From the IMG/VR virus record IMGVR_UViG_2700989400_000003: a DNA stretch of 41,210 bases, one strand, 5' to 3'. Made by a program: the position numbers. Positions 33,001 through 36,000 of the stretch are shown piece after piece; within the stretch, counting starts at the first letter, position 1, and each line of letters begins with the position of its first letter. Origin of the DNA: a virus. Lineage: Duplodnaviria; Heunggongvirae; Uroviricota; Caudoviricetes.

Positions 33001-36000
33001 CTTTAGCGGATGCTCTGAAGTGCTCACCTACGTGGCTAATGTTTGGTGACGAAGACAAAACACCATTGCCAGCACAAGAGCTTCATGTGGAAAACGAGCT
33101 AACTCCCAGCCACAAAGAATTGATTGAATTATTCGATGCTCTACCATCCTCCGAGCAGGAAGCATTGCTGTCTGAAATGCGCGCTAGAGTTGAGAATTTC
33201 AATAGACTTTTCGAAGAAATGCTCAAAGCTCGTAAAAACAAATCTATAAAATAGCTTTCTTTTCAGTCTGTTATATCCCAACACACTTTTTGTTAGGTTG
33301 ATCTAACAAAAAGTGCTTGCCTGTCTTGTTAGGTTATTCTAAATTAACCACACCAAAACACCGCACGGTGTTCTCAGCAAACAGTTCCGCCACCCGGCGT
33401 TAAGGGGATACGAAGATGATCGCAGATGAAAAGCAGGGACTGGTGTTAAAAATAGATACCAGCCCCCTGAGACATCAGATTGAGAAGTTATACAAACTAC
33501 TTGTTCCTGCGGTTTTTAACTGTCCGGATGATTTTATTGATTGTTTTATTAAAGTGTTCACTGAAATCAGAATCTTTGATTTCCGCAAAACAATCACCGC
33601 AGATAAAACGATCATTGTCAGAGCCAGAGTGCTCATCGATCTCAATGTAGCGAGATCGGCAATGAGGACAGCGAAATTTAATATCCATAATTAATATCCT
33701 TACAGCAAATTACCATTTGTAAGGATATCACCTCACCTGATGTGGTTAAAAGCAGGTCGTAGGCTCCACGATACGGAGCAACTATGAAGCCAATTCCCCC
33801 AGCGTTAAGGGAAAATGAGGTCAACATGGATACTATCGATCTTAGCAACAACGAATCCCTGGTGTGTGGCGTGTTCCCCAACCAGGATGGAACGTTCACC
33901 GCCATGACGTATACCAAAAGCAAAACGTTTAAAACCGAAGTTGGCGCGCGTCGCTGGTTGGAGAAGTACACAGTAAGCTAACGATTAAAACGTCTGCTCC
34001 TACTGTTCCAGAATAACTTCATAAAGTGGGAGTATTTTTCGGTGACGAGATAATAAGAACAGTTTGCGCCATCACTCTGATGTTGAATGATGCCCTTCCG
34101 TTCTAATTTTTTCATAACCGGGTTACGGCAAGGAGAAGTGATAATAAGATTTCCTGTTTTAAGGAAATCTTTAAATACAGCGATTTCTTTCTCAGATAAA
34201 CGAAGCAATACTCGTTGCTCTGGTAGCAATGAATAATGTTTTTGAATATGTGCTCGCAATCTTGAGAAGGAAATGGCAACCACGAAAGAAAAGGCAAAAC
34301 CTATAATCTGAAAGAGCCAGGGTATTTCAGTATAAGCATTAAATACGACAGCAAACTCTTTCGGTATCAGCCAGAGAGTGAGGCCAAAAATGATAATCGT
34401 GTACATAAGTCTTTCGAGTGGCTCGTTAGCAAAAAGTTTCAACAATGGAGTAAATACATCCAACATTTCAATAACTCTCGACTGTAAGGGTATTGAAATG
34501 TTAACACAAGCTCTCGCTGTAGGGGTATAGCCGAGACCACCGAAGCCCGGAGGTGGTGAAATAAAACCGGGCACAACACGAAGGCGCATTTCCGGTATCC
34601 ATAAAGAGTCGGTCTTGTCTGTTAAATATAAATGGTGGGAGTGCGCCTCCGGTTGTGAATAACGACATTGCTGTGTGTAGTCTTTGGCGGCATCGGTTTT
34701 TTCTTGAAGTTCGACTGATGTCCGCCCTTTTTAAAGTGAATTTTGTGATGCGGTGAATGCGGCTAAGCGCACGCGGAACAGTTAAAAAACTCTATATTAG
34801 TTTGGGGGGGTATTTGTATCCGGTGTTAATTGTTAACTGGTTAACATCACCTGGAGGCACCAGGCACCGCATCAACAAAGTTCATTTGAAAAAATGGAGA
34901 TGATTATGATTGCACATCACTTCGGAACTGATGAAATACCACGTCAGTGTGTAACCCCTGGCGATTATGTTCTTCATGAAGGTCGGACATATATCGCCTC
35001 GGCAAACAATATTAAAAAGCGAAAACTTTATATTCGTAGCCTGACTACAAAAACATGCATTTCTGACTGCATGATTAAAGTCTTCCTCGGTCGTGATGGT
35101 TTACCTGTAAAAGCGGAATCATGGTGATGGCTAAGAAAATCAAATGTGCTTACCACCTTTGCAATAAAGAAATTCAAGAAAGCAAAAGTATTAAAATACC
35201 ACTTCATTTCATGCGTGGAGTTATCCCAACGACGGAAATGAAAAAATATTGTAGTGAAAGTTGCGCCGAAAAACACCAGATGGCACACGAACTTTAATTA
35301 ACTGACTACTCGAAACTGAATTTATGCCAACAATGGCAGGGATTCGCTCAACCTTAATTAAGGAGAAAAACATGATTGCCAATTATGAATCCACTGTTGT
35401 TACTACTGATAACATTGTTCACGAGGTTTATCTGGAAGGAAAACGCATTGGCCACGTGATTAAAACACAAAATAAAGAAACCCCATTCACTGTGGTTGAT
35501 ATCGATGGTCCATCAGGCAACGTTAAAACACTTAACGAAGGTGTCAAAAAAATGAGTCTGGTGCACATTGGTAAGAATCTGCCCGCAGAAAAAAAAGCCG
35601 CATTTCTGGCAACGCTGATTGCAATGAAATTAAAAGGTGAAATCTGAAAGAAATAGCCTGCGTATGGCGCAGGCTATGAACAGTGTGTATCCGGCAAGAT
35701 CATTCACTGAACAAAACGAATTTTAATCTGAGTTGAGGTTAAAAAACAATGAGCGCAAAACCACTCTTCCTGTTACGGAAAGCGAAAAAATCATCCGGTG
35801 AACCTGACGTCGTCCTGTGGGCAAGCGACGATTTTGAATCGACCTGCGCCACTCTGGACTACCTGATCGTCAAATCAGGTAAAAAACTGAGCAGCTATTT
35901 TAAAGCTGTTGCCACTAATTTTCCTGTCGTTAATGACCTGCCCCCTGAAGGTGAGATCGATTTTACCTGGAGTGAACGCTATCAACTCAGCAAAGACTCC

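Follow-up and report, generated by a model that had tools for sequence, protein, structure and literature searches.

A predicted KilS-type small RNA and a conserved structured leader upstream of kilR in a Rac-type lambdoid prophage

In Escherichia coli K-12, the small RNA (sRNA) KilS is annotated as ncRNA kilS (b4833) between kilR and sieB. It was found from Hfq RNA interaction by ligation and sequencing (RIL-seq) data and confirmed by Northern analysis, with a transcription start site (TSS) at 1418502, an internal RNase E site at 1418471, and three interactions recorded in all, the named partner being yncL (Bar et al. 2021, PMC8175672). That paper makes no mention of DicF, the sRNA of the Qin dicF-dicB locus, and none of the papers searched names KilS and DicF together. 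The 3' region of DicF has been shown to pair with the Shine-Dalgarno region of ftsZ (PMC5069750), and its ends are made by termination, RNase III, and RNase E, according to the title of a 1990 paper by Faubladier et al. that PMC5069750 cites. The kilR gene of K-12 is silent unless termination dependent on NusG and Rho is relieved, read-through being needed, and KilR then blocks FtsZ (PMC10798246). For the free-standing sRNAs STnc100 and PasD, a common ancestry has been proposed (bioRxiv 10.64898/2026.05.13.724894). The element analyzed here is the spacer between sieB and kilR in a 41,210-nt stretch of viral DNA (IMG/VR record IMGVR_UViG_2700989400_000003, Caudoviricetes), hereafter called the window; all coordinates refer to the whole stretch, and gene calls were based on an open reading frame (ORF) listing, direct reading, comparison with K-12 Rac, RefSeq, and Pfam.

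We consider it probable that the locus forms the early-left 'host-interference' block in a lambdoid prophage of the Rac type and that its spacer is a composite RNA locus read on the plus strand. The original prediction had taken the spacer for a control region holding both divergent promoters, and an sRNA gene of the KilS/DicF type and its terminator were overlooked. The protein genes and the existence of KilS, DicF, and STnc100 were already known. Three things are added, namely the placement of KilS as a DicF-family RNA, a covariation-supported STnc100-like fold with a long closing helix that is shared by the kilR and dicB leaders, and a KilS seed that is RprA-like and part of a widespread phage early-left module. 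The first of these may already stand in work published by Faubladier and Bouché in 1994, which may describe a dicF-like sequence in Rac. The window locus is a new allele and is mostly an extension of known systems.

The KilS-type RNA and the structured kilR leader

The predicted sRNA occupies positions 34635-34732 (+) and comprises a 5' hairpin, the equivalent of the K-12 RNase E site, a single-stranded seed, and an intrinsic terminator consisting of a hairpin at 34686-34726 followed by UUUUU, which ends at 34732, upstream of kilR. In the alignment with K-12 KilS, 93 of 99 columns were identical (93.9%), and the two RNAs share the position between sieB and kilR as well as the strand, which is that of kilR. 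The Rfam DicF model (RF00039) was matched in full at 34672-34727 with 44.9 bits against a gathering threshold of 48 (E between 1e-8 and 1e-6, depending on the search space).

Alignment of the window with both K-12 Rac and Qin dicF-dicB delimited the homology to Qin, which extended past the sRNA, from upstream of the mature 5' end of DicF, through the terminator, to the downstream start codon; the sRNA bodies of the window and Qin were 69% identical, and the leaders were 81% identical. The K-12 RNase E site, located one nucleotide before AUUGCUG, is the positional equivalent of the 5' end of DicF that is made by RNase E and corresponds to a 67-nt form. The DicF loop AGUUUUACUCCG, which pairs with the ftsZ Shine-Dalgarno sequence CGGAGAGAAACU, is replaced in the window by GGUUUUUUCUUGAAG, which is devoid of CUCC. 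When cofolded with ftsZ, the DicF hairpin opened onto the ftsZ ribosome binding site (RBS) with -12.3 kcal/mol, whereas the window sRNA kept its hairpin and formed 3-bp patches with -6.5 kcal/mol, energies that do not discriminate against shuffled sequences. In the comparison with 100 mononucleotide shuffles, even the validated DicF-ftsZ pair was not separated (z = 0.2), and this test was rejected because shuffling destroys the sRNA's own hairpin. Duplex prediction on whole sRNAs versus ftsZ gave large, meaningless energies and was replaced by seed-only duplexes. On the basis of the exchanged loop and the 69% identity of the bodies, the sequence was assigned to a KilS orthologue and DicF-family relative and not to a functional DicF.

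A megablast search with the 98-nt sRNA returned 255 genomes, four of them at ≥99% identity; these counts are not an allele frequency, because the 28-nt word misses K-12-type alleles. The spacer RNAs are left unannotated by RefSeq in genomes other than K-12, because both RNA matches fall just under the Rfam cutoffs, and unannotated spacers of this kind get mistaken for promoter DNA.

The leader of kilR, 152 nt in length (34735-34886, +) and STnc100/PasD-like in its fold, begins 3 nt past the KilS U-tract and runs to the kilR RBS. The Rfam STnc100 model (RF02076) was matched at 34739-34879 with 43.1 bits against a gathering threshold of 47, covering model positions 22-154 of 206. An alignment was constructed from 14 leader-type elements of at least six genera, including Escherichia (four species), Shigella, Citrobacter, Lelliottia, Pseudescherichia, Scandinavium, and Buttiauxella, together with viral contigs. 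The consensus fold, obtained with RNAalifold and explicit pair counting on these elements, contained 43 pairs with 96.8% of cells paired and consisted of a closing 21-bp helix (34735-34755 with 34865-34886), a small hairpin (34759-34774), a GTTAAC hairpin (34822-34848), and a nearly invariant hairpin CCUGG-AGGCA-CCAGG (34850-34864), all on the plus strand. Eighteen pairs were changed on both sides, the observed values were reached in none of 500 shuffles, and pairing dropped to 34-45% when the partners were slid. The leader is conserved by compensatory changes across enterobacterial genera. The RNA 34635-34910 alone folded into the same shape (z = -4.47), with the kilR RBS predicted to be unpaired. 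No terminator was found before kilR and no promoter match was found for the leader, which in this respect is not a free-standing gene of the STnc100/PasD kind.

The hairpin motif CACCNGGAGGCACCNGGCAC was present in at least 120 species-representative genomes, nearly all of them Enterobacterales among those listed, and occurred in three settings: free-standing sRNA genes with a promoter and terminator, positions directly before tRNA genes, and leaders of small first genes. It was also observed that the STnc100-type element (GGUGAAU ... CACCGGGAGGCACCCGGCACC) is multicopy in many Enterobacterales, often with two or three copies a few hundred base pairs apart. Copies were located on chromosomes and on a 400-kb Pantoea plasmid, and some adjoin tRNA genes (for example, L100 at 3812-4735, L114 at about 4871, L078 at 225-1398, L054, and L108).

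The start of kilR that is equivalent to that of K-12 is the third ATG, at 34906, and the spacer is therefore 439 bp long and not 427 bp as first supposed. It was correctly described as free of protein coding, since it contains no conserved ORF and the indels among its homologues have lengths not divisible by three, but about 250 of the 439 bp correspond to the counterpart of an annotated sRNA and to a covarying RNA structure on the plus strand. Over its whole length the spacer is 91% identical to K-12. GTTAAC is present at 34500, 34832, and 34840, and a run of seven G residues at 34804-34810. The region containing these elements had been presumed to hold both promoters, a view that is not supported. 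The copies at 34832 and 34840 are the opposite arms of the RNA hairpin 34822-34848 (helix 4), in which five of nine pairs are changed on both sides in other genera, and the G-run falls in a variable insert of the leader RNA. An immunity operator is made less likely by the occurrence of the leader sequence before Qin dicB and in Rac prophages whose repressors are unrelated. A consensus scan of 33900-35000, which includes the interval 34467-34893 proposed for the two promoters, detected no sigma-70-type promoter in the spacer on either strand, and a terminator scan of the same region returned one weak terminator-like site, located inside sieB in antisense. The left 168 bp of the spacer (34467-34634), expected to hold the sieB promoter (-) and the KilS promoter (+), may be the place of the promoters, although none was detected there by the scan; a TATAAA sequence (34627-34632) closely precedes the base that corresponds to the 5' end of K-12 KilS.

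The RprA-like seed and the modularity of the cassette

The seed of the window sRNA (34654-34686, +; sRNA nt 20-52) is identical to nt 47-79 of RprA at 31 of 33 nt and includes an exact 20-mer shared with RprA, AUUGCUGUGUGUAGUCUUUG (34667-34686), directly before the terminator. Of this 20-mer, 16 nt are present in K-12 KilS and none in DicF. By our own arithmetic, the chance expectation of an exact 20-mer match to a 106-nt RNA in 41 kb on both strands is approximately 6e-6. The Rfam RprA model (RF00034) scored 29.3 bits against a cutoff of 70, with a match that was limited to the seed segment and did not include the three stem-loops of RprA.

Pairing of the seed with the yncL 5' untranslated region (UTR) was predicted at -43 to -16 (10 + 6 bp, about -20 kcal/mol), in agreement with the partner from K-12 RIL-seq. 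With the rpoS leader, RprA paired at -32 kcal/mol via UCCCCU and AACGAAUU, compared with a scattered duplex of -19 kcal/mol for the window sRNA, both values being without a calibrated background; the window sRNA appears to pair much less well because the UCCCCU block is missing and a C interrupts AACGAAUU. A search for seed targets along the stretch itself, in 16,460 sequence segments, gave the seed's own antisense as the single site that stood out. The next-best pairing sites, at 1626-1646 (+) with -25.6 kcal/mol and 38986-39001 (+) with -21.9 kcal/mol, may be at chance level among that many segments.

The distribution of the seed was assessed by scanning IMG/VR for its 15-mer core, which was found in at least 120 contigs; the counts that follow are among those 120. 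A T-run was present within 90 nt downstream of the 15-mer in 115 contigs, consistent with a hairpin terminator, and the terminator hairpins were of two kinds, GCCC...GGGC (RprA-like) and GGCGG...CCGCC (DicF/KilS-like). Contigs that differ in their flanks and terminators keep the 15-mer invariant, and one viral element was 95.7% identical to RprA nt 59-104 (46 nt). An STnc100-type hairpin was located 175-188 nt downstream of the seed in 31 contigs, which is the arrangement of the window, and 24-27 nt upstream in 15 others, giving the order scaffold, seed, and terminator. A DicA-like or CI-like repressor gene was co-oriented within 3 kb upstream (75 contigs), and homologues of kilR (27 contigs), ydaE (30), and recE (24) were exclusively downstream of the seed unit, so that the seed-plus-terminator module serves as a landmark of the start of the early-left operon. 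No family was reported by Rfam at its gathering threshold at the seed sites of 14 viral contigs carrying the seed. Close relatives of the RprA 3' half (nt 59-104, seed and terminator) were likewise noted in many IMG/VR contigs (L140, L227, L137, L138, and others), in which the upstream sequences are unrelated. Two candidate seed families were rejected, HnrS, which is encoded in a group of late genes and has mazF and hha as its pairing partners, and PreS, which is lambda-specific.

A tentative extension of these results, which we hold to be possible but on the doubtful side, is that KilS-type sRNAs, DicF, and the RprA 3' half constitute one 'seed plus terminator' family that marks where the early-left operon begins in many lambdoid phages of enterobacteria, with the 3' domain of RprA either derived from a prophage module or copied into phages, and with the window allele acting as an RprA mimic or competitor on those host targets for which the shared seed portion is used. 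The kinship of KilS, DicF, and RprA is one of sequence, whereas a direction of transfer and a functional mimicry are features that the family may have. If true, the prophage would be linked to the network of envelope stress and RpoS, and its cassette would at the same time keep an FtsZ killer in reserve. A common origin, and possibly common targets, of a well-studied core regulator and numerous phage sRNAs are suggested by the RprA-seed kinship.

The leader precedes kilR in the window, K-12, E. ruysiae, and many viral contigs, and it precedes dicB in Qin, E. albertii, and others. It is also found before the gene of a YdaE-like 94-aa protein and before unrelated small genes in Shigella, Citrobacter, Lelliottia, and others. 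Natural chimeras include a KilS seed combined with a DicF loop before kilR (L190 and L211), KilS before dicB (L177), and a DicF 5' end combined with a KilS stem before dicB (L123); L194 also belongs to the chimera set. Among the isolated, viable phages that carry the module are Rac-SA53 and vB_EcoS-666R9. The sRNA, the leader, and the division-inhibitor gene are a modular cassette reshuffled by phages, and its reassorting parts (the kind of seed, the kind of loop, and the first gene, be it kilR, dicB, or another) are natural variants for asking what role each part has, including a role in ftsZ targeting.

Proposed mechanism and alternative explanations

According to the preferred reading, transcription in the lysogen would start just upstream of 34635 and mostly stop at the terminator, yielding an Hfq-binding sRNA that RNase E would trim to approximately 67 nt. 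This sRNA would act in trans via its seed, as in the pairing with the 5' UTR of the K-12 partner yncL, and not on ftsZ in the manner of DicF, and rare read-through would be kept from making KilR (in K-12 by Rho/NusG). Upon derepression of the early-left promoter next to the DicA-like repressor, or with a weakened Rho/NusG, transcripts would run through ydaF, cross sieB in antisense, and pass the terminator and leader into kilR-ydaE-racC-recET. RNase III would most likely cut the long helix, which, with its length of about 21 bp and its start 3 nt past the U-tract of the terminator, is the kind of substrate that this enzyme cuts, and would thereby separate the sRNA from the kilR mRNA; KilR would then block FtsZ. 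An sRNA-leader-killer cassette of this type would account for the tolerance of a lethal FtsZ inhibitor in a lysogen, in which it would be shielded by the terminator, the structured leader, and Rho.

Several points weigh against this reading. Both Rfam matches are below the curated cutoffs, and discrete Hfq-bound expression with its own TSS and RNase E processing is known for K-12 only, so that for this allele it is a prediction. The pairing with yncL is modest, and yncL alone would not account for the conservation of the seed in phages of other genera. The view that ftsZ is probably no target is drawn from the missing CUCC anti-Shine-Dalgarno loop and not from a calibrated score, and the cut of the closing helix by RNase III is deduced from the helix length and the dicF literature. 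Finally, because no recognizable sigma-70 promoter precedes 34635, the 5' end of the sRNA could derive from processing of a longer transcript.

Other explanations were weighed against the same data. It is unlikely that the sRNA is a working DicF, which would block ftsZ translation by antisense pairing and double the attack of KilR on FtsZ. The full-length match to the DicF model (E 1e-8), the same position relative to the leader and division-inhibitor gene, and the hybrid alleles with a KilS seed and a DicF loop upstream of kilR would fit such a role, and the 3' stem UGUCCGCC, as read from the sequences, could still pair with GGCGACA upstream of the ftsZ RBS; however, the score of 44.9 bits is below the cutoff of 48, the loop has lost CUCC in the exchange of AGUUUUACUCCG for GGUUUUUUCUUGAAG, the cofold keeps the hairpin of the window sRNA closed (-6.5 versus -12.3 kcal/mol for DicF, energies that are not discriminating versus shuffles), and the partner named by K-12 RIL-seq is yncL. 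A quite unlikely reading takes the spacer for a control region at the DNA level, in which two promoters diverge and GTTAAC and the G-run are operator-like protein-binding elements. The adjacent GTTAAC copies are hairpin arms with compensatory changes (five of nine helix 4 pairs), the sequence recurs before Qin dicB and in Rac prophages with unrelated repressors, it lies downstream of the sRNA terminator in what is an annotated 5' UTR-derived sRNA locus of K-12, and no promoter-like site was found in the scan, although divergent genes do need promoters somewhere in the spacer, GTTAAC is palindromic and present there in three copies, and they may lie in the left 168 bp (34467-34634).

The loop and junction nucleotides of the leader are nearly invariant across genera (GGUGAAU and CCNGG-AGGCA-CCNGG), which suggests recognition by a protein or by RNA polymerase. 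This invariance, the location at the head of the early-left operon, and the related elements before tRNA genes and other transcription units could be expected of a cis-acting processive antiterminator of the HK022 put type, which would carry RNA polymerase past the downstream terminators of the long kilR-recET-xis-int operon in a phage without an N protein. Such a function is nevertheless very unlikely: the free-standing relatives STnc100 and PasD are made as discrete sRNAs, with termination 40-70 nt downstream, whereas antitermination would have the opposite effect; Rho/NusG silences kilR in K-12 even though the leader is present there; and the leader, with about 150 nt and a long closing helix, differs from the two-stem put RNAs of about 70 nt (PMC9378689; compared by description). 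It is highly improbable that the RNA elements are decaying remnants of a cryptic prophage without present function, whose likeness to DicF, STnc100, and RprA reflects shared ancestry alone. Sub-threshold Rfam scores for both elements, the cryptic state of Rac in K-12, and the positions left unannotated by RefSeq in other genomes are compatible with decay, but base pairs are kept by compensatory changes across genera, the seed 15-mer is invariant amid differing flanks and terminators, the module is carried by isolated viable phages (Rac-SA53 and vB_EcoS-666R9), and KilS is expressed and Hfq-bound in K-12 (PMC8175672). The composite RNA locus is accordingly retained as the preferred reading of the spacer.

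Gene context and comparison with described systems

The spacer is flanked on the left by sieB (33978-34466, -), encoding superinfection exclusion protein B (162 aa), which is 97.5% identical to K-12 SieB and matched the Pfam SieB profile (PF14163) with 98.2 bits against a cutoff of 26. An extended sieB ORF of 203 aa reaching 34589 was rejected; the Pfam SieB model begins at its residue 62, and the 162-aa form is used in K-12 and RefSeq. On the right, kilR encodes the FtsZ inhibitor (73 aa), with the coding sequence (CDS) at 34906-35127 (+) according to RefSeq coordinates, or 34896-35127 when the RBS GGAG (34896-34899), which sits 6 nt before the start, is included. KilR is orthologous to K-12 KilR, with 69 of 73 residues identical (94.5%), and no Pfam family exists for it. 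The kilR stop overlaps the start of ydaE in TGATG (35125-35129), and RefSeq takes the ATG at 35121 for ydaE (35121-35297, +), a member of a small zinc-binding protein family labelled 'YdaE family protein'. It is followed by racC (35372-35647, +; 91 aa, function unknown), which is 90% identical to K-12 RacC and is a RefSeq CDS with the same coordinates, and by the next gene in the leftward early operon, recE (exonuclease VIII; 35749-38400, +), which is 85% identical to K-12 RecE and annotated by RefSeq. The tight coupling of ydaE and racC to kilR and the divergence of sieB from kilR-ydaE-racC, both part of the original prediction, were upheld, with the strands in agreement, and the alignment with K-12 Rac did not reveal the low similarity that would have spoken against them. 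The superinfection-exclusion and FtsZ-killer roles proposed with them are published for the K-12 orthologues (KilR inhibits FtsZ, PMC10798246) and are predicted by homology for this prophage. YdaE was observed to diverge more (64% identity to K-12 YdaE) than its neighbors (90-95%), and its Rtr1/RPAP2-type zinc-finger match of 32.9 bits, just below the cutoff of 33, agrees with the K-12 label 'zinc-binding protein'.

A 2.1-kb stretch including these genes was 99.4-99.8% identical to several E. coli chromosomes, in which RefSeq labels sieB, kilR, YdaE-family, hypothetical (RacC), recE, recT, ralR, xisR, and intR, adjoining ttcA. The order sieB / kilR-ydaE-racC-recE-recT-ralR-xisR-intR beside ttcA, which is the Rac site, is that of a Rac-type prophage. 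Upstream of sieB lies ydaF (33826-33981, +), encoding a DUF1391 protein (Pfam, 95 bits) with 90% identity to K-12 YdaF, as annotated by RefSeq in a 99.8%-identical genome. The genes ydaF (+) and sieB (-) converge with a 4-nt overlap (33978-33981) and no terminator separating them; therefore, early-left transcription must cross all of sieB in antisense, and sieB transcription re-enters ydaF. In the interval from the repressor to ydaF, at the place of ydaG in K-12 Rac, a 92-aa ORF was noted (33416-33694, +), for which there is no Pfam family and which RefSeq calls hypothetical, as was a 63-aa ORF on the opposite strand (33497-33688).

The immunity region (32134-33254) contains Pfam P22_Cro and YdaT_toxin proteins beside the repressor. 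A cro-like/YdaT-like pair at the repressor, reported to be toxic when derepressed in Rac, had been proposed, and the pair exists, but its setting is not that of Rac: the repressor (32847-33254) is 57% identical to Qin DicA, the identity of the Cro-like protein to Qin DicC is 75%, and neither RacR nor YdaS gave a meaningful match. YdaT is 91% identical to Rac YdaT, and the RacR/YdaS immunity pair of Rac was not found in this prophage. The immunity region is a mosaic of DicA/DicC-like genes and a Rac-type ydaT, and not plain K-12-type Rac. Elsewhere in the window, Rfam identified the RalA antitoxin sRNA of the RalR/RalA type I toxin-antitoxin pair (39476-39654, -; 218 bits, cutoff 170) and a sok antitoxin RNA (27713-27889, -; 111 bits, above cutoff), which implies a hok/sok locus, and an isrK-like sub-threshold match (33 bits versus 50) adjoins sok at 27474-27554 (-).

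Compared with described systems, sieB of the window resembles that of P22 and lambda in encoding a SieB-family exclusion protein (Pfam SieB) within the early-left region of a lambdoid phage, but it is inverted relative to the early-left operon, so that early transcripts would cross it in antisense. For P22, a table of PMC12197685 associates an RNA regulator (antisense RNA sas) with sieB. The sRNA StxS of Stx phages also derives from a short phage transcript (PR'-tR') with a terminator before genes that depend on read-through, and RNase E trims it to an Hfq sRNA of about 70 nt acting on host mRNAs (PMC7547250); in contrast to the window sRNA with its early-left location, StxS is made from the Q-controlled late promoter and is an activator of rpoS. 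RprA, a core-genome Hfq sRNA and rpoS activator, likewise has an RNase E-processed seed beside its terminator, with 31 of 33 nt in common, whereas the window sRNA does not have the two 5' hairpins and the rpoS-pairing UCCCCU block of RprA, and its terminator is of the DicF type. With STnc100 and PasD, the leader shares the closing helix GYGGUG/CACCRC, the 5' hairpin after GGUGAAU, the variable hairpin, and the conserved CCNGG-AGGCA-CCNGG hairpin, and it differs in being a kilR 5' leader with no terminator of its own and no recognizable promoter, in a closing helix extended to 21 bp, and in a 5' hairpin of the AAUGCGGCU...CGCGG subtype.

The Qin dicF-dicB locus has the same order of an sRNA with a GGCGG...CCGCC terminator, a structured leader (81% identical), and a small division-inhibitor gene, with the RNase E-generated 5' end at the equivalent place and the synteny of the early-left operon. 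In the window, the seed is of the KilS/RprA type and not UUUCUGGUGACG, the ftsZ-pairing loop is missing, the Rfam DicF score is below the cutoff, and the place of dicB downstream is taken by the unrelated kilR. The closest described relative is K-12 KilS, which has the same 5' hairpin, RNase E-site sequence, terminator, position, and strand (93.9% over 98 nt). The window allele differs from it by three substitutions and two 1-nt indels, most of which fall within the terminator hairpin or where the seed joins the terminator, by a better -10-like sequence (TATAAA), by a 20-nt instead of a 16-nt exact match to RprA, and by its location in a prophage with immunity of the DicA/DicC type rather than the RacR/YdaS type.

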